A DNA stretch of 32,000 nucleotides from Propionibacterium ruminifibrarum (GTDB lineage: Bacteria; Actinomycetota; Actinomycetes; Propionibacteriales; Propionibacteriaceae), in the NCBI RefSeq assembly GCF_900289195.1, contig NZ_OMOH01000003.1, positions 90,001-122,000 of the forward strand, given 5' to 3'. Under the pieces are notes generated by a model. That model saw only the letters and a list, made by a program, of their open reading frames with translations, made no database searches and was not told where the DNA came from. How positions within the stretch are numbered: the stretch's first letter is position 1; every line of letters begins with the position of its first letter. A program made the position numbers and the translations under genes. Shown here piece after piece: positions 4,173-32,000 of this stretch.

Positions 4173-4706
4173 GTGGGACGAGCAGGCGAGAAGAAAAGAC
4201 GATGGGCTCCGGCGCTCCCTGTCGCTGGGCTGATGATTGCCGTCATCGCATTTGTCGCTGACGAATTTTATCCAGAAGGCAGGTATAAGGCTTTATTCTT
4301 CTTGTGTCATGAACTCGGAGTGCTTCTCGTCATCATCTCAGCGATTGTCGCCGTCATTTCAGGCGGCGCGGCCATGCGGACTCGCAGAAGGATCGTGCTG
4401 AGTGCCGGCGCGGCCCTGATGGCCGCCTATCTGGTGGTGGCCACGGCATTCTGGTGGGCTCTCGGCGGGCATTACGATCTCAACCGGCTGAAGTATGACG
4501 ACAATTGGATCATCGGAAGGAATATTGCCGAGGTTGAAGAACGGTACGGCGATGCAGAGGAATGGGGCAGCCATAGCTACTGCTATACCCTTTATCGGGA
4601 TGAAGCGGCGATCATGCCCTCGCACAGTGTCATGTACTATGTCATGTACACCGATGACAGTGGCGTGGTGACGGAAATCAAAGAGCGCCATCGCCCTGGT
4701 GAATGA
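4173..4706 (+). CDS. Hypothetical membrane protein (3 predicted TM helices + about 80-aa C-terminal soluble domain), low-GC gene
   Basis: 177 aa from the GTG at 4173, with a GGGGG 7 nt upstream; an in-frame ATG at 4233 is an alternative start. Hydrophobic stretches are LPVAGLMIAVIAFVA, LGVLLVIISAIVAVISGG and LSAGAALMAAYLVVATAFWWAL. I recognise no family. A hand count of 4261-4320 gives 24/60 GC. Confidence 0.55.
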   Translation: MGRAGEKKRRWAPALPVAGLMIAVIAFVADEFYPEGRYKALFFLCHELGVLLVIISAIVAVISGGAAMRTRRRIVLSAGAALMAAYLVVATAFWWALGGHYDLNRLKYDDNWIIGRNIAEVEERYGDAEEWGSHSYCYTLYRDEAAIMPSHSVMYYVMYTDDSGVVTEIKERHRPGE

Positions 4707-4737
4707 TTCACTCGTGAGGCGGATGGAATTCCATCGC

Positions 4738-4755
4738 GGGTCCGGACTCGGACCC
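4738..4755 (+). terminator. Stem-loop GGGTCCG-gact-CGGACCC downstream of the 177-aa gene
   Basis: A 7-bp perfect stem with a 4-nt loop, 32 nt after the stop. There is no U-tract. It sits between convergent genes. Confidence 0.35.
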
Positions 4756-4852
4756 CTGCGTGTCATGTGCGGCTTGTTCGCCTTGCCCATGGAGGGAGTA
4801 GGACAGTCGGCCGCAAACGCCGTCCTGTGGGGGTCCCGAGAGGGCTGCTGGG

Positions 4853-6097
4853 TCAGCCCGCGTCCTGGTCCACGGGAGTCTGCCCCGGCGCCTCGGCCCG
4901 TGCCCTGCCCCTGAAGTCCCGGACGAACGCCCCCAGTGCGATGAGACCGATCATGATGCCGGCGGACCACAGGAACTGATCGTCGCCGATGTAGGCGCCG
5001 CCCTCCTGGCAGGTGTTGAGTGCTTTGAGGAGCCACAGCGGGTCGTGAGAATGCGACTGGAAGGTCTCGGTGGAGCAGTCGGTGATCTCCCGGTCCGATA
5101 TGCCCGACGCCAGCGTCCGGAGGATGTTCGCCGGGGAGAAGCCGATGCGCGTCATCGAGACCAGGAGGACGATGAACACGAGAGGAGCCACGAGCCGCCG
5201 GACGACGAGGTTCTCCGCCTTGTGGCACATCCTCGTGAGGGAGACGAACAAACCGATCGTCACCCCGATGATCGCGGACGCGGCGGGGATGTCGACGAGA
5301 ATTCTGGGGGTGAGGGACATGGACTCGTCATCGTGAATCGTCAGGAGGAATGCCGCGGCGGGTACGAGCGCCGCCGTGAGGAGCCCGGCCGCCGTCCCGA
5401 TGCCGGTCCCCTCGGCGATGGCCCGGACGGTCGCCCGCAGGTCGAGGCCGACGGTCAGCGTCCGGGAATAGGTCAGGACCGCCATGAAGAGGATCGTCAG
5501 GACGAGTGTCGTGGTGAGGCACGAGGCGATGGCCAGGCCGTTGTATCCGAACTCTGCTCCAAAAGTTGCCCGGGAGAGACTGGGGCTGCTCTCCACCGTC
5601 CACACGAGAAGGATCGCGACCAGGACCGGGGAAAGGATCACACTCAAGAGGTAAGCCCGGATGAAGGTCTGAGGTTCGAGTAATTTCTCCAGCGAATGCG
5701 GGCCGATGTTCAGCTCGCCCCACCCGTGTGGTGCGATGATCCGGTTCCCCCGGCGGAGGGTCGTCCGGGTCCTCGCCGCCGTCCGGCGCGCCCAGCGCAG
5801 CGGGAGGGATCGGATCGGGGCCCCGTCGTTGCGCTGAACACTTCGCAGCAGCCGTGACACGCTCAACGTGATCACCGCGGCGCACGAGCACACCAGGAGC
5901 ATGACCAACAGCGTTGTGGTGGACGCGACGGGGGCGAGGGGGATGAGTGCGGCGCCGACGCACCAGGCGATGACCTCGGTGATGGCCTTCACGGCGGACA
6001 GCACCGGGTGCGTCCGTCCCGGACGGCGCAGCCACCCGGTGAACCGGGCTCCGCCGAGGACGAGCAACCCGATGCCAATGATGATGAGGCCTGCCAT
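4853..6097 (-). CDS. Hypothetical polytopic membrane protein (about 9-10 TM)
   Basis: 414 aa from the ATG at 6097, with GGAG upstream. Hydrophobic segments alternate with Arg-rich loops. I recognise no family motif. Composition is intermediate (36/60 GC at 5461-5520). Confidence 0.6.
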   Translation of the reverse strand: MAGLIIIGIGLLVLGGARFTGWLRRPGRTHPVLSAVKAITEVIAWCVGAALIPLAPVASTTTLLVMLLVCSCAAVITLSVSRLLRSVQRNDGAPIRSLPLRWARRTAARTRTTLRRGNRIIAPHGWGELNIGPHSLEKLLEPQTFIRAYLLSVILSPVLVAILLVWTVESSPSLSRATFGAEFGYNGLAIASCLTTTLVLTILFMAVLTYSRTLTVGLDLRATVRAIAEGTGIGTAAGLLTAALVPAAAFLLTIHDDESMSLTPRILVDIPAASAIIGVTIGLFVSLTRMCHKAENLVVRRLVAPLVFIVLLVSMTRIGFSPANILRTLASGISDREITDCSTETFQSHSHDPLWLLKALNTCQEGGAYIGDDQFLWSAGIMIGLIALGAFVRDFRGRARAEAPGQTPVDQDAG

Positions 6098-6242
6098 GCG
6101 TCTCCAGGGTCGTCAGGTGGGTGTGGATGATTGTTCAGCGCCGGCCCCGGGGTGAAGAGGCCCGCCGTGCCGTCGGCGCGGCGTGTCTGGCGGGAGCACG
6201 CGCCGCCTCGTGCAACGGACCCATGCTCGCCCGGCGTGACAG

Positions 6243-6275
6243 AAAACCCCTGGCCAACCAATGGTTGGCCAGGGG
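6243..6275 (-). terminator. Rho-independent terminator downstream of tRNA-Leu
   Basis: The minus strand reads CCCCTGGCCAACC-ATT-GGTTGGCCAGGGG followed by TTTTCT. That is a 13-bp perfect stem, starting 11 nt after the tRNA 3' end. Confidence 0.8.
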
Positions 6276-6285
6276 TCTCGTGCTG

Positions 6286-6369
6286 TGCGCGAGAGAGGAG
6301 TTGAACCTCCACGCCCTAAACGGGCACTGGCACCTGAAGCCAGCGCGTCTGCCATTCCGCCACTCGCGC
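6286..6369 (-). tRNA. tRNA-Leu (anticodon CAG), class II with long variable arm
   Basis: Hand-folded from the minus strand. Acceptor GCGCGAG/CUCGCGC, 3-bp D stem, anticodon stem CUGGC/GCCAG with loop UUCAGGU, variable arm GCCC-GUUUA-GGGC, T arm GGAGG-UUCAACU-CCUCU, discriminator A. Length 84 nt; CCA is not encoded. Confidence 0.93.
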
Positions 6370-27828: not shown

Positions 27829-29724
27829 ATGAGCGCTGTCAGCGCACCGGCCGAGCACATCGAGCAGATCAGGGACGCCGTCGATGAGCGGCTGCGGCGC
27901 AGGAGGCAGCGGAGGCTCTTCCAGAACAACGAGACCTACGCCGCGGCGGCGCTCGCCCTCGCCACCGTTATCGCCCTCGTGTGGGCGAACGTGGGGGACA
28001 GCTACCAGACCTTCTGGCACACGTCGGCGGCGGTCTCTCTCGGCCCGTTCGAGATCGACCTCACTCTGCACGAGTGGGTGGACGAGGGCCTCACGTCCGT
28101 CTTCTTCTTCATGGTGGGCCTGGACGTGCGCCGCGACCTCACCCTGGGAGACCTGCGGCTGCCCGGCCACGCGCTCCTTCCTGCGGCGGCCGCCGTCGGC
28201 GGGTTCATCGTCCCCGCCGTCGTCTTCGTGCTCGTCACCGGAGGCGGTGACGGCGCCCATGCGTGGGGTGCGGTGATCTCCACCGACACGGCCTTCGCCC
28301 TGGGCATGCTCGCCCTCATCGGCCCCAGACACGCGCCCCGGCTGCGGCTGTTCCTGCTCGCCTTCGCCGTCATCGACGACATCGGCGCGTTGACGGTCAT
28401 CGCGATCTTCTACTCCGGCTCCCTGAACCTCGTGGCCCTCGCGGTGGCCGTCGCGGGGCTGGCCGTCATCTGGCTCATGGCCCGCCGGGGCGTGTGGCGG
28501 GTGCCGCCCTATCTCGTGCTCGGCGTCGTCATCTGGTACGCCCTCTACCGCTCCGGTGTGCACGCCACCCTGGCAGGGGTGCTCATCGCCCTGCTCATGC
28601 CCGTGTACACCGTGCGAACCCGGGACGTGGACGAGTCGAACGAGATCGCCACGCTCTACCGTCAGGCCCCGGCTCCAGCGACCGCCCTGGCGCTGCGGGA
28701 GTCCCTCATCTACTCCATGCCGCTCAACCAGCGGCTGGCGTTCGTGCTGCCCCCGTACGTCAACTACGTGGTGGTGCCCCTGTTCGCCCTGGCCAACGCC
28801 GGTGTCGTACTGAGCGCCGACAGCCTCGGCAACGCCTTCTCCTCGCGGCTCACCTGGGCCATCGTCGCCGGCCTCGTGCTCGGCAAGGTGCTCGGTGTCG
28901 GCCTGGGTGCGGGCCTCGTGCTGCGGCTCGTGCCGCACTCGCGGCTGCACGGCCTGGACATGCCCCGGATCCTGGGGCTGGGCGCCCTGTCCGGCATGGG
29001 GTTCACCATCTCGCTGCTCGTGGTGAACATCGCGTTCGAGGACGAGACCCTGCGTGACCAGGCGAGGCTGGGCGTGCTGTTGGCCTCCCTCATGGCGCTC
29101 GTCCTGGCCTGGGTGATCTTCCGCGTGGCCGGCAGGCTCTCCCCGCTGCCCGAACCGGCCGGTGAGGTCCTGGAACGCCCCGTCGACGTCGAGCGGGACC
29201 TGACCGTCGGCGACCAGGACGCCCCGCACGTGCTCGTCAACTACGCCGACATGAACGACGAGGGCAGGTGGCGTCTCGCGGAGGCCCTGCAGGCCAGCCA
29301 GCACCTCGTGCAGTCCGGTGAGCTGCTCCTCGTCATGCGCCACATCGTCTCCGGGCCGGAGAGCCTGCTCGCGGCGCTCGCGCTCGAGGCGGCCGCGGCG
29401 AACAAGGAGCCGAACCTGTGGCCCTTCCACGACGCCCTGGCCGCACTGCGCGGCGGCATCACCGCACGCACCATCACCCGGGCCGCCCGCGAGACCGGCA
29501 TCGACGTCGACGCCCTGTGGCGGCGCATCGACTCCCGGACGGACGAGAAGAAGGTGCTCGCCGACTCCGACGACGTCGAGGACCTGACCGAGGACGGCGC
29601 CCCAGTGGTGTACATCGACGGCAGGCGCCTCACCCGGCTGCTGCACAGCTGGACCATCACCGACGAAATCAACCGGCTCAACCAGGAGGCTGCCGACCAG
29701 GAGGACTCCGTGCAACGCCCCTGA
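27829..29724 (+). CDS. nhaA: Na+/H+ antiporter NhaA fused to a C-terminal DsbA-like thioredoxin-fold domain
   Basis: Start at the ATG at 27829 (MSAVSAP...). NhaA blocks are EWVDEGLTSVFFFMVGLDVRRD, VIDDIGALTVIAIFY and VPLFALANAGV. The C-terminal roughly 170 aa resemble the DsbA-like domain fused to NhaA in many actinobacteria. Confidence 0.88.
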   Translation: MSAVSAPAEHIEQIRDAVDERLRRRRQRRLFQNNETYAAAALALATVIALVWANVGDSYQTFWHTSAAVSLGPFEIDLTLHEWVDEGLTSVFFFMVGLDVRRDLTLGDLRLPGHALLPAAAAVGGFIVPAVVFVLVTGGGDGAHAWGAVISTDTAFALGMLALIGPRHAPRLRLFLLAFAVIDDIGALTVIAIFYSGSLNLVALAVAVAGLAVIWLMARRGVWRVPPYLVLGVVIWYALYRSGVHATLAGVLIALLMPVYTVRTRDVDESNEIATLYRQAPAPATALALRESLIYSMPLNQRLAFVLPPYVNYVVVPLFALANAGVVLSADSLGNAFSSRLTWAIVAGLVLGKVLGVGLGAGLVLRLVPHSRLHGLDMPRILGLGALSGMGFTISLLVVNIAFEDETLRDQARLGVLLASLMALVLAWVIFRVAGRLSPLPEPAGEVLERPVDVERDLTVGDQDAPHVLVNYADMNDEGRWRLAEALQASQHLVQSGELLLVMRHIVSGPESLLAALALEAAAANKEPNLWPFHDALAALRGGITARTITRAARETGIDVDALWRRIDSRTDEKKVLADSDDVEDLTEDGAPVVYIDGRRLTRLLHSWTITDEINRLNQEAADQEDSVQRP

Positions 29725-29897
29725 ACACGGACCGGCAACCGGCGGGGCCGATGCGTCAGGTCGAGGGGACGCCGACTGGTCGTCCTGGTCATCGGAGGTA
29801 TCGGCGAGGACGCCGGACTTCATGGTGGACACCGACGGGCCGGCGGGCTGCACCGTCCCGGCGGGGCCGGTCGACTCAGCCGCTGGGCCGGATGCTC

Positions 29898-30095
29898 TCA
29901 GCGGAGCAGGCGCCTGCCGTGGCTGCCCGCCCAGCCCACGGTGACGGCGACGAGCACCCAGCAGACGTTCTCGAAGACGCCCGGATGCCGGCCGGCGGCC
30001 AGCTGGATGACCAGGTCGAGCAGCAGGCAGGCAAGCGTGATGGCGGCCCACTCGGCAACGATCCTGCCGGTGATCCTCACTCCACTCGCAGCCAT
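29898..30095 (-). CDS. Possible small two-TM membrane protein
   Basis: 65 aa from the ATG at 30095; the track start at 30122 is a TTG. There are two hydrophobic segments (WAAITLACLLLDLVIQLAAG and VCWVLVAVTVGWAG). The RBS is weak and no homology is recognised. Confidence 0.3.
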   Translation of the reverse strand: MAASGVRITGRIVAEWAAITLACLLLDLVIQLAAGRHPGVFENVCWVLVAVTVGWAGSHGRRLLR

Positions 30096-30137
30096 GGCGG
30101 CCCCTGGTATTCCTCGTGGCAATCAGTGCCAGTTTAG

Positions 30138-30217
30138 TTCAGCTCGTCGTGGTCAGGGTGGACGTGCCGTCCGGGCTCGGGCGCACGCTCACCCGCTCGG
30201 CGATGCGCTGCTTCATC
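30138..30217 (-). pseudogene. Orphan duplicate of the last 26 codons + stop of sbcC (left direct repeat)
   Basis: The minus strand reads MKQRIAERVSVRPSPDGTSTLTTTS*. It shows 75/80 nt identity, without gaps, to 31657-31736. Confidence 0.8.
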
Positions 30218-30313
30218 GGTGCCTGTGTCTCAGCTAAGAAAAAAGTGGACAGCGTCCAGCGGGAAGTCACTAGGTGTTAACTGGGTACAAGATCACCATC
30301 ACTGGATGGAGCA

Positions 30314-31582
30314 ATGCTAATGGCTAGAGGAACCTCGCTGGCAGGGCCGAACAAATTCGTGGGGTGGGGTATCTGCACCGCAGCATTCCCTTGGGTATTT
30401 TTTATCATTCAATGTATCGAGCAAGTGTTTATATCGGTGCGTAATGCTCATGATATCAAGTCAACCATAGTCTCTTCTTTTTCGGGTTCTTTCTCTAGCT
30501 TGAAAGGGTCAATGCCTGGAGAGCTCAGTGTAGTTCTGGCGCTGCTTACTGTTGAAGGCATTTTGATGGCTGCAGCGTCGGGGTTTAAGGGGGTTAAGTT
30601 TAGACCATGGTCCAAGGTGCGAGGCGAGTCATTATTGACAATTACAAGTGAATATCAAAAAAGATGGTCAGCTTATATGGTGATAGCAGTCTTGGGATCC
30701 TCTTCGGGGGTTGTGCTTTTTTGCGGCGTGGTTATCCTCTTTTCCAACCATGGCTTATTATTTGCATTAATCATGATTTGTCTGGCTGCTATGCATGTCG
30801 TGGTGAATGTATTTCTCGTTTCGCTAGAGGCGGGTGACTTAAATGAATTTGCCCCGTATGTACTCTATTGCAAGCTCTTTCAGCGCGTAGTTGATGTTAA
30901 AGCCGCTGGGCCGCTAAATCGCAGAGATAGCCCGACCGCTGTACCGGTCTTGGCTTATGCGTTGGCGGTGCTGGCGCTACTTCTGTTACCGGTGGTTCCG
31001 CTGATCGGGGTGATAGCTGTTGAGTGGGCTGAATTGCGCGAAGAATATAGATGGGTCTTTGTTGTGTGGGTCTTTGGGCCAGAAGTTGTATTGGCCTGTG
31101 TTGCCTTGTTTGTTGCCCGGTCATACTGGGGTGGCTGCCACTGGTCTGCCGACTATAGTGATAGCGCATCGAAGCGAGTCGCCGTATTGCTCATAGAGTG
31201 GGTGCTGTTTGGGGGTGTGGCTTTGTTCATGGTTCTGTCCCTATTAATATATCATGACGCGGGTGTGAGTGGATTGAGCATGATTCTCTTTGCATTGTCC
31301 GTGATGTGCAGTATCGTCGTAGCGTTCATGGCTGCTTCTCGCTCGGGGGTAATCTGGCGGCGCGGTCTGATGAATAAGCTTTGGAGTCAGATATATCATA
31401 TGGCTGGTCAACAATTCGTTCAGGGTCGTTCTGACCTTTTCAAGATGGACGGCGGCGCGTCACTTGACAGCGCCAATAAGGAGTTGTTGCGAATGTATTC
31501 CGCCAAAGATCGTGCTGAGCTGTCGGTGATCGCAAAACAGATTATTAATTGGGGGTATGACGGCTCCAATTCTGTGGGCTGA
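30314..31582 (+). CDS. Orphan polytopic membrane protein (about 8-9 TM + about 70-aa C-terminal soluble tail), function unknown
   Basis: 422 aa from the ATG at 30314; ATG at 30320 is an alternative, with GGAG at 30307-10. The long ORF in AT-rich DNA is unlikely to be spurious and is followed by a canonical terminator. I recognise no family motif. Confidence 0.7.
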   Translation: MLMARGTSLAGPNKFVGWGICTAAFPWVFFIIQCIEQVFISVRNAHDIKSTIVSSFSGSFSSLKGSMPGELSVVLALLTVEGILMAAASGFKGVKFRPWSKVRGESLLTITSEYQKRWSAYMVIAVLGSSSGVVLFCGVVILFSNHGLLFALIMICLAAMHVVVNVFLVSLEAGDLNEFAPYVLYCKLFQRVVDVKAAGPLNRRDSPTAVPVLAYALAVLALLLLPVVPLIGVIAVEWAELREEYRWVFVVWVFGPEVVLACVALFVARSYWGGCHWSADYSDSASKRVAVLLIEWVLFGGVALFMVLSLLIYHDAGVSGLSMILFALSVMCSIVVAFMAASRSGVIWRRGLMNKLWSQIYHMAGQQFVQGRSDLFKMDGGASLDSANKELLRMYSAKDRAELSVIAKQIINWGYDGSNSVG

Positions 31583-31590
31583 TAGGTATG

Positions 31591-31636
31591 GCGGTATGCG
31601 CCACCCATGAAAACAGGTGGCGCATACCGCGTTTCT
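31591..31636 (+). terminator. Rho-independent terminator of the 422-aa gene
   Basis: GCGGTATGCGCCACC (31591-605) pairs perfectly with GGTGGCGCATACCGC (31616-30), a 15-bp stem, followed by GTTTCT. It starts 9 nt after the stop. Confidence 0.75.
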
Positions 31637-31656
31637 GGTGTTGCTCGTAGAACTGG

Positions 31657-31736
31657 TTCAGTTCGTCGTGGTCAGGGTGGACGTGCCGTCCGGGCTTGGG
31701 CGAACGCTCACCCGCTTGGCGATGCGCTGCTGCATC
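31657..31736. repeat. Right direct repeat (authentic 3' end of sbcC)
   Basis: 80 bp with 5 mismatches to 30138-30217. Confidence 0.8.
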
Positions 31737-32000
31737 TCGGCGACGTGGCTGATGACGCCGATGCAGCGCCCGCCCGCGCGCAGCTGTTCCAGCTGGCCCA
31801 TGACCGTGTCGAGGGCGTCGGCGTCGAGGCTGCCGAAGCCCTCGTCGATGAAGAGGCTGTTGAGTTCGATGCCCCCGGCCTCGCTCGTCACCGTGTCGGA
31901 CAGGCCGAGCGCCATCGCCAGCGAGGCCAGGAAGGTCTCGCCGCCCGACAGGGTGCGCGGGTCGCGTTCGGTGTCGACGGGCACGTGGTCGACGACGACC
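31658..32000 (-). CDS. sbcC: SbcC-like SMC-family nuclease ATPase, C-terminal part (5' end outside window)
   Basis: LSGGETFLASLAMALGLSD (signature), LFIDEGFGSLD (Walker B/D-loop) and GVISHV (H-loop). It closely parallels the E. coli SbcC C-terminus (TLSGGESFLVSLALALALSD...LFLDEGFGTLD...IGVISHV). The frame stays open to the window end. Confidence 0.8.
   Translation of the reverse strand, partial: VVVDHVPVDTERDPRTLSGGETFLASLAMALGLSDTVTSEAGGIELNSLFIDEGFGSLDADALDTVMGQLEQLRAGGRCIGVISHVAEMQQRIAKRVSVRPSPDGTSTLTTTN

Follow-up and report, generated by a model that had tools for sequence, protein, structure and literature searches.

Acquired DNA at the 3′ end of a resident gene has been described in several bacterial systems. 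In Escherichia coli, element e14 (and phage 21) occupies the 3′ end of icd and is accompanied by an icdC orphan (PMC13626634, citing Hill et al. 1989). In streptococci, cis-mobilizable elements (CIMEs) of 1.2–13 kb that lack recombination and transfer genes are found at the 3′ ends of fda, rpmG, and rpsI (PMC7563491). A third route, homology-facilitated illegitimate recombination (HFIR) or C-terminal displacement, has been proposed to leave orphaned 3′ regions at Rhs and contact-dependent inhibition (CDI) loci and in the effector–immunity arrays of the Vibrio cholerae T6SS (type VI secretion system) (PMC5361080). Here we analyze a 32,000-nt stretch of the Propionibacterium ruminifibrarum JV5 genome (the window) in which a low-GC islet with a single gene lies between a small 65-aa open reading frame (ORF) and the 3′ end of sbcC. 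Relative to all sampled relatives, the islet replaced a flavodoxin-like gene, and we tentatively attribute it to a displacement of the sbcC 3′ end anchored in sbcC itself. The locus is an ordinary kind of gene-acquisition scar and does not demonstrate a new mobile element; the literature that we searched contains no description of sbcC as an integration target, but a new target gene does not amount to a new kind of system. The features of the locus are as follows, with coordinates and strands those of the window.

29780–29885, no strand assigned: JV5-specific unalignable patch in the spacer between NhaA and the small ORF, not shown to belong to the same event.
29898–30095, minus strand: small hydrophobic ORF of 65 aa, the conserved left neighbor, called as a gene in all related contigs; GC content at third codon positions (GC3) of 0.89.
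30096–30136, no strand assigned: linker that separates the small ORF from the orphan and originally flanked sbcC downstream.
30137–30217, minus strand: left repeat copy, the orphaned last 26 codons and stop of sbcC, read as the displaced native 3′ end.
30218–31655, plus strand: foreign low-GC segment of 1,438 bp, GC 0.43–0.55, missing from all relatives.
30320–31582, plus strand: ORFan of 420 aa (422 aa if read from the ATG at 30314), equal to WP_147385343.
31591–31630, no strand assigned: perfect hairpin of 15–18 bp between the convergent ORFan and sbcC, likely a bidirectional terminator.
31656–31736, minus strand: right repeat copy, the working sbcC 3′ end, read as having arrived with the foreign DNA.
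31658–32000, minus strand: C-terminal 113 codons of sbcC, with a match to SbcC_Walker_B; the gene continues past the window edge.

Alignment of positions 30137–30217 with 31656–31736 reveals an ungapped 81-nt direct repeat with 5 mismatches (94% identity), in agreement with the initial annotation of this locus, which had reported a diverged, ungapped 80-bp repeat with the same number of mismatches. The repeat holds the sbcC stop codon, the last 26 codons, and 2 nt past the stop, and the longest identical run shared by its copies is 34 nt, TCGTCGTGGTCAGGGTGGACGTGCCGTCCGGGCT. Within the window, exactly two occurrences of a 41-nt core pattern are found, with none in 100 shuffles. As the initial annotation had also proposed, the right copy is the true end of sbcC, being continuous with the ORF that matches SbcC_Walker_B, and the left copy is an orphan, a free-standing 26-codon fragment in both the ORF and the codon comparison. 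The latter reproduces the two silent differences noted earlier, GTG/CCG in the left copy and GTT/CCA in the right, along with terminal S versus N, E versus K, and K versus Q. The left joint falls between CATC and GGTGCC. Both islet junctions are also present in a second genome, GCA_040307615.1 (L001), with the same arrangement at 99.9% identity, and the left junction was found again in a Logan assembly; because the junctions are seen in independent assemblies, the structure is not an assembly artifact.

The locus was compared with five A-type, P. ruminifibrarum-like samples (L008/L014, L009, L010, and L017), four loci of P. australiense (L003, L011, L012, and L013), and the outgroup L007. Counted from the stop codon, the repeat mismatches lie at nt 5, 40, 46, 60, and 75, and at all five the orphan has the state of the relatives and of the outgroup. 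The right copy carries four private derived changes (nt 5, 40, 46, and 60; two non-synonymous and two synonymous), which are missing from the orphan and from all relatives, and one polymorphic state; its derived states are mostly AT-ward. This supports the polarity originally suggested, with the left copy native and the right copy element-derived. Against the sbcC ends of relatives, the orphan shows 4 differences in 80 nt, one of them at nt 80, where homology stops; the others are at nt 25, 34, and 75, and 25C and 75T agree with the outgroup. The orphan has no indels and at most one private change in 80 nt, and the adjacent linker is ~37% diverged from that of P. australiense. With an undecayed orphan beside a diverged linker, and with the working end as the derived copy, it follows that the orphan was recently part of the working gene. 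From these substitutions, the JV5 orphan appears to be young and the present sbcC end appears to have come from elsewhere.

This polarity bears on whether the 80 nt were simply duplicated in place at a staggered break, through end joining or template switching that captured foreign DNA, with the five differences arising later. Such an event needs neither a donor arm nor a recombinase, and Ku/LigD end joining is general in Actinobacteria. However, an unconstrained orphan is expected to change at least as fast as a working end, and the asymmetry therefore speaks against duplication in place: all five differences fall on the constrained working copy and none on the orphan, for which P is 0.03 under equal rates after the duplication, or less. 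An 80-nt fill-in also far exceeds typical end-joining products, and the private changes run past the duplicated stretch, as described below. We consider this origin very improbable.

The divergence private to JV5 was followed into sbcC using nt 1–343 from the window and, beyond nt 343, the second strain L001. There are 12 private changes in nt 1–208 (5.8%) and 1 in nt 209–585 (~0.3%), and those past the 80-nt repeat are located at nt 91, 105, 121, 139, 204, and 208. Farther upstream in the gene, nt 344–1100 show a symmetric 1.9% on the JV5 and A-type branches and nt 1101–1545 show 0.45%, compared with a background of 0.25%. Within the 343 nt from the window, 12 mismatches separate JV5 from the A-type contigs, and at 12 of 12 JV5 differs from all relatives. 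Three-taxon branch lengths over the same nt 1–343 are 10.5 for JV5, 1.5 for the A-type, and 13.5 for P. australiense, so that by this measure the sbcC-end allele of JV5 appears almost as distant from its conspecifics as another species. The private states 25C and 91G agree with the distant outgroup L007, which suggests an allele from another lineage and not new mutations. The initial annotation had read the repeat as the product of a site-specific event in which the element supplies a surrogate 3′ end. That claim is weakened by private changes that reach nt 208, where an 80-nt end predicts none; a surrogate end of that length cannot explain the changes at nt 91–208, and a homologous arm that arrived with the foreign DNA would.

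The explanation that we favor as the most economical, while judging it to fall somewhat short of an even chance, is that recombination anchored in sbcC displaced its 3′ end and that the other junction formed illegitimately at nt 80, in the style of HFIR. The incoming DNA would have been made up of foreign low-GC DNA, with the ORFan and its hairpin terminator, linked to an sbcC 3′ arm of Propionibacterium type that was at least 208 nt long. A homologous crossover would have taken place inside the resident sbcC, and at the other end a non-homologous join would have formed 80 nt upstream of the stop codon of the resident gene. The last 80 nt of the resident gene would then have stayed beside the original linker as the orphan, with the incoming arm now completing sbcC. 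The flavodoxin-like gene would have disappeared in this step or a neighboring one, for instance when a deletion joined an older orphan to the resident end, or the recipient would have been without it. Consistent with displacement, the orphan sits beside the original flank, adjoining a linker homologous to that of P. australiense, and the private tract in sbcC is contiguous with the insert and ends abruptly (the second strain being the source beyond nt 343). We infer the homologous-plus-illegitimate mechanism, the order of events, and an unsampled donor lineage from the sequence comparison.

Several points weigh against this explanation. No sampled donor lineage has sbcC followed by the ORFan, the composite donor molecule is hypothetical, and the model only pushes back the question of how low-GC DNA came to follow an sbcC stop codon. 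It also requires either a recipient without the flavodoxin-like gene, which was never observed, or an extra deletion step. The course of sbcC past nt 343 rests on L001, which has its own cluster of four differences at 31892–31958, and the excess of private changes in nt 1–60 over nt 61–343 is marginal (P = 0.04). Additionally, the left junction gives no reading on microhomology, with the donor flank unsampled, and natural competence or another DNA-uptake route is not known for the species.

Comparison with relatives shows that JV5 stands apart in what it carries at the site. In state A, seen in the five P. ruminifibrarum-like metagenome or metagenome-assembled genome samples, the small ORF is followed by a 210-nt spacer, a 159-aa flavodoxin-like gene that starts 9 nt after the sbcC stop, and sbcC. 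In state B, seen in P. australiense, the small ORF is followed by the linker, an sbcC 3′ orphan, the flavodoxin-like gene of state A, and sbcC. State C is the JV5 window, with the low-GC islet in place of the flavodoxin-like gene. In the outgroup L007, a distant uncultured Propionibacterium whose SbcC has 67% aa identity, sbcC and a terminator are followed by a MerR/GyrI gene, an rve fragment, and a helicase, up to the same FAD oxidase, with no sbcC orphan. Over the aligned flank, identity of the A-type contigs to the window is 97–98.5%, and outside a mosaic zone it is 99.75% (for L010, 98.5% over 8.3 kb and 99.75% left of 26250), and BLAST homology between window and relatives ends at 30104 and starts again at 31658. 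Between states A and B, aa identity is 74% for the flavodoxin-like protein, the same as for SbcC; the gene was therefore inherited vertically in the clade and lost in JV5, making JV5 the derived state. A simple insertion, as first proposed, is thus not what we find, since the islet took the place of a gene; the empty site that such an insertion would predict does not occur among the sampled relatives, in which the flavodoxin-like gene occupies the site in both P. ruminifibrarum-like and P. australiense contigs. Metagenome scans with the small-ORF protein and with a 28-nt sbcC-end pattern found nothing.

The P. australiense orphan (L003 12406–12540) contains nt 1–93 of the sbcC end with a 1-nt insertion, followed by nt 161–191 after a ~70-nt deletion. 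A decayed orphan is present in 4 of 4 loci of this type, with ~11% divergence between the orphans from two P. australiense lineages (manual count on the alignment). The linker of JV5, taken with the 2 nt that overlap the repeat (30096–30138), matches that of P. australiense at 27 of 43 positions without gaps (P = 1.2e-7, ~37% divergence). The P. australiense orphan thus adjoins the same linker and a different gene, and because that gene is vertically inherited, orphaned sbcC ends are not specific to the islet here, contrary to what an origin of the orphan by islet integration had implied.

A linker–orphan junction that is also found in P. australiense raises the question of a single, older origin. 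The orphan would have arisen in the common ancestor of the two species, when the NhaA/small-ORF block or the flavodoxin-like gene arrived, and would have been kept sbcC-like by gene conversion; low-GC DNA would later have replaced the flavodoxin-like gene, with both repeats already in place on either side of it. One origin is the most parsimonious count, each orphan resembles the sbcC end of its own species, as concerted evolution would give, and 34C is common to the JV5 orphan, the JV5 working end, and the P. australiense-type orphan of L013. However, the JV5 copy is undecayed, and the P. australiense orphans have the indel, the ~70-nt deletion, and the ~11% between-lineage divergence given above. 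The four private working-end changes missing from the orphan indicate no recent conversion by the present end, and a longest identical run of 34 nt is marginal for RecA-mediated conversion. Furthermore, the A-type contigs of the same species have no detectable orphan (z = 0.4–1.9); the idea, formed by eye, that their 210-nt spacer is a hypermutated sbcC orphan was rejected, as these z values against shuffles were equaled by a reverse-complement control. We regard an old, converted orphan as unlikely.

Over a few hundred bases around the junction, the locus is a fine-scale mosaic. At L010 8973–9220, compared with L003 and L008, the sbcC end is P. australiense-like, with 6 mismatches to that species versus 9 to its own group in 248 nt, and the flavodoxin-like gene and spacer of the same contig remain A-type; the sbcC 3′ end has therefore been exchanged between lineages, a sign of recombination between species. 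The A-type contigs diverge over the linker and the 3′ half of the small ORF, where JV5 agrees with P. australiense. At 29780–29885, a JV5 patch of ~100 nt is unalignable to the relatives, and A-type and P. australiense sequences are mutually homologous there. Both the exchange and the mosaic structure add to the case for anchored recombination. Over 4.35 kb, L001 differs from the window by clustered C-to-G/T changes at 31892, 31910, 31916, and 31958 (67 nt of sbcC) and otherwise only at 30515 in the ORFan (P68S). The cluster of four may be local hypermutation, a conversion tract, or an assembly error. A strand-biased C-to-X cluster in sbcC was dropped as a candidate, as four sites are specific to L001 and the remaining 7:1 split is not significant.

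A search for mobile-element machinery returned no integrase, transposase, or excisionase among the Pfam matches over the 32-kb window, whose products include ABC transporters, a glycosyltransferase, a cutinase, a helicase, NlpC/P60, PGI, an FAD oxidase, and NhaA. No recombinase is present in the ~8 kb beyond sbcC in related contigs, where sbcD, a flavodoxin, a major facilitator superfamily (MFS) transporter, and an alcohol dehydrogenase are found. The absence of integrase, transposase, and excisionase claimed in the initial annotation thus extends over both regions. Features of a transposon, insertion sequence, or miniature inverted-repeat transposable element are likewise missing, with no inverted repeat between the islet ends, a duplication of 81 nt, and no transposase. 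There is no tRNA gene at the islet site. As for an integron cassette, which would have an attC site and an IntI integrase close by, there is no integrase, the sole hairpin is of the perfect-stem terminator type, and Rfam gives no relevant match; a match to ST7-OT4_3 (E = 0.057, under the gathering score) was treated as noise.

These searches, together with the comparison of relatives, bear on whether the islet is a decayed site-specific element, of the CIME kind or mobilized in trans. Such an element would have integrated through an integrase, using an 80-nt surrogate sbcC end as its attP, and would later have lost all but one cargo gene and both att sites. In anatomy, the islet matches e14, which sits in icd beside an icdC orphan (PMC13626634), and is like ICEs (integrative and conjugative elements), IMEs (integrative and mobilizable elements), and CIMEs in the 3′ ends of fda, rpmG, and rpsI. 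At 1.44 kb and without recombination or transfer genes, the islet fits within the reported CIME range of 1.2–13 kb (PMC7563491), the repeats being only putative att sites. The foreign-looking changes sit on the working end, and in P. australiense copies of the sbcC end bracket a second, different cargo, the flavodoxin-like gene. Of the features expected of a site-specific element of the e14/icd or ICESt3/fda type, however, repeat borders are present, but an integrase inside, an empty attB, and foreign changes confined to the repeat are not. No integrase occurs in the window or in the ~8 kb beyond sbcC in relatives, the sampled relatives show no related element, ICE, IME, or empty attB at the site, and none of the related loci examined holds an ICE or IME that shares the target with the islet. 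Searches of 1.84 billion representative proteins and of plasmids, phages, and viral contigs gave no second copy of the cargo. The private changes that reach nt 208 are unexplained by an 80-nt attP, the orphans differ in length (80 nt in JV5 versus at least 190 nt in P. australiense), and the surrogate end is 66% GC and 94% host-identical, compared with 49% GC for the cargo. A decayed element is therefore doubtful in our estimation. We give little credence to a bolder version, in which the sbcC 3′ end of the clade would be an attachment site that exchanges recombinase-less single-gene cassettes through a recombinase acting in trans. If this were true, the flavodoxin-like gene and the ORFan would both be cassettes, in a system outside integrons and ICE/CIME accretion.

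The foreign character of the segment is evident from its composition. In 200-nt windows, GC is 0.66–0.755 in the flanks and 0.425–0.555 across 30300–31600, so the GC discontinuity first noted by hand holds in sliding windows, while the low value of 38% given with it, the one checkable detail of that description that does not hold, is not reached at this window size. The islet has a single long ORF (30314–31582, with the annotated start at 30320 and GGAG 8 nt upstream), and none of the other five frames has an ORF above 90 aa. At islet composition, the probability of no stop in 422 codons is 7.5e-10. A codon-usage comparison, suggested in the initial annotation, gives the ORF a GC3 of 0.52 versus 0.89–0.94 in neighboring genes. 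The proposal of a foreign segment with one gene is supported, and its description as exactly one gene plus terminator also stands, the islet consisting of this ORF and a strong hairpin.

The protein encoded by this ORF matches WP_147385343 of P. ruminifibrarum JV5 exactly and has ~9–10 predicted transmembrane helices followed by a soluble C-terminal region of ~75 aa. A word-indexed search of 5.8 billion clusters and an exhaustive phmmer search against 1.84 billion representative proteins each returned only the protein itself. There was no match in Pfam, NCBIfam, PADLOC, PHROGs, or PDB, no tblastn or blastn match for ORFan or islet in plasmids or phages, and none in IMG/VR. The initial annotation had proposed a search for further copies of the islet; as no second copy of islet or protein was found anywhere, there is no evidence of an element family. 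An AlphaFold single-sequence model had a predicted local distance difference test (pLDDT) score of 43 and was not used. Going by its anatomy alone, the product is a predicted integral membrane protein, whose gene may have been retained as moron-like cargo together with a terminator of its own. Kinship with the other unknown membrane ORF of the window, at 4853–6097, was rejected, as the two are unrelated.

The hairpin at 31591–31630 has a perfect 15-bp stem (18 bp on the minus strand) with a folding energy of −32 to −36 kcal/mol, and z values of −3.0 on the plus strand and −5.8 on the minus strand; the T-run on the plus strand is only weak. It is likely a bidirectional terminator that serves both the ORFan and sbcC. 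As part of the foreign segment, the hairpin gives sbcC a terminator of foreign origin. A terminator-like site on the minus strand at 30246–30258 was dropped as weak and at chance level.

Other parts of the window show variation of their own. The small 65-aa ORF at 29898–30095 has no family match in profile searches. Outside P. ruminifibrarum and P. australiense, the nearest relatives of NhaA (27829–29724) are from Actinomyces (73–75% aa), with Acidipropionibacterium at ~50–53%, and in L007 MerR/GyrI, the rve fragment, and the helicase, in place of the NhaA block, lie between the FAD oxidase and sbcC. Judging from these similarities, the NhaA block seems to have been acquired horizontally at an earlier time, in the same variable interval. 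Its arrival together with an Actinomyces sbcC fragment is unsupported, as the Actinomyces NhaA genes are in unrelated contexts. At the far side of the window, a tRNA-Leu(CAG) gene at 6285–6369 on the minus strand adjoins a lower-GC stretch (0.61–0.66) within 4173–6369, whose ORFs 4173–4706 and 4853–6097 have no Pfam match above threshold. This stretch could be a small island at the tRNA gene; no integrase is seen there.

The locus offers a clean natural case, in a high-GC actinobacterium, of a foreign gene fixed beside a core gene without mobile-element machinery, with the displaced gene end serving as a dated scar of the acquisition. If anchored recombination proves true, orphaned gene ends could serve in genome-wide searches as markers of acquisition without a recombinase. 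The ORFan, which has no detectable relative in ~15 billion predicted proteins, is a candidate for study as a true ORFan. The understanding of mobile DNA would be unchanged unless a trans-acting recombinase turns up.

The locus can be set beside several known systems. Like strain-specific islets or "morons", it has one AT-rich foreign gene with a terminator at a variable hotspot between core genes, and its content varies among close relatives (the ORFan, the flavodoxin-like gene, or in L007 MerR/GyrI and the rve fragment); unlike at such hotspots, a gene end is duplicated, which a double homologous crossover normally does not leave behind. Like CIMEs, the islet is small, cargo-only, bounded by direct repeats, and placed at a gene 3′ end, but CIMEs are recognized by att sites common to an ICE or IME at the same target, and no such partner is known for sbcC in the clade. 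There is also a likeness to e14 in icd: the insert provides a surrogate 3′ end that differs slightly, so that the gene remains intact, the native fragment persists as a pseudogene at the far end, and a deletion between the copies regenerates a chimeric but functional gene. However, e14 is ~15 kb, has its own integrase and excisionase, and is excised upon SOS induction, while the islet is 1.4 kb with one gene and no recombinase, has no known excision or empty site, and has foreign-looking changes that pass the repeat. Rhs and T6SS displacement differs in that its anchor is a polymorphic toxin and its cargo a toxin–immunity pair; here the anchor is a DNA-repair nuclease subunit with a conserved 3′ end, the peptides encoded by the new and old sbcC ends are nearly identical, one ORFan makes up the cargo, and the mechanism is deduced from substitution patterns. 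In both, arriving DNA is anchored by homology to a conserved upstream stretch and delivers a new 3′ end with a downstream gene, the old 3′ part is orphaned downstream, no recombinase is required, and events recur at one locus.

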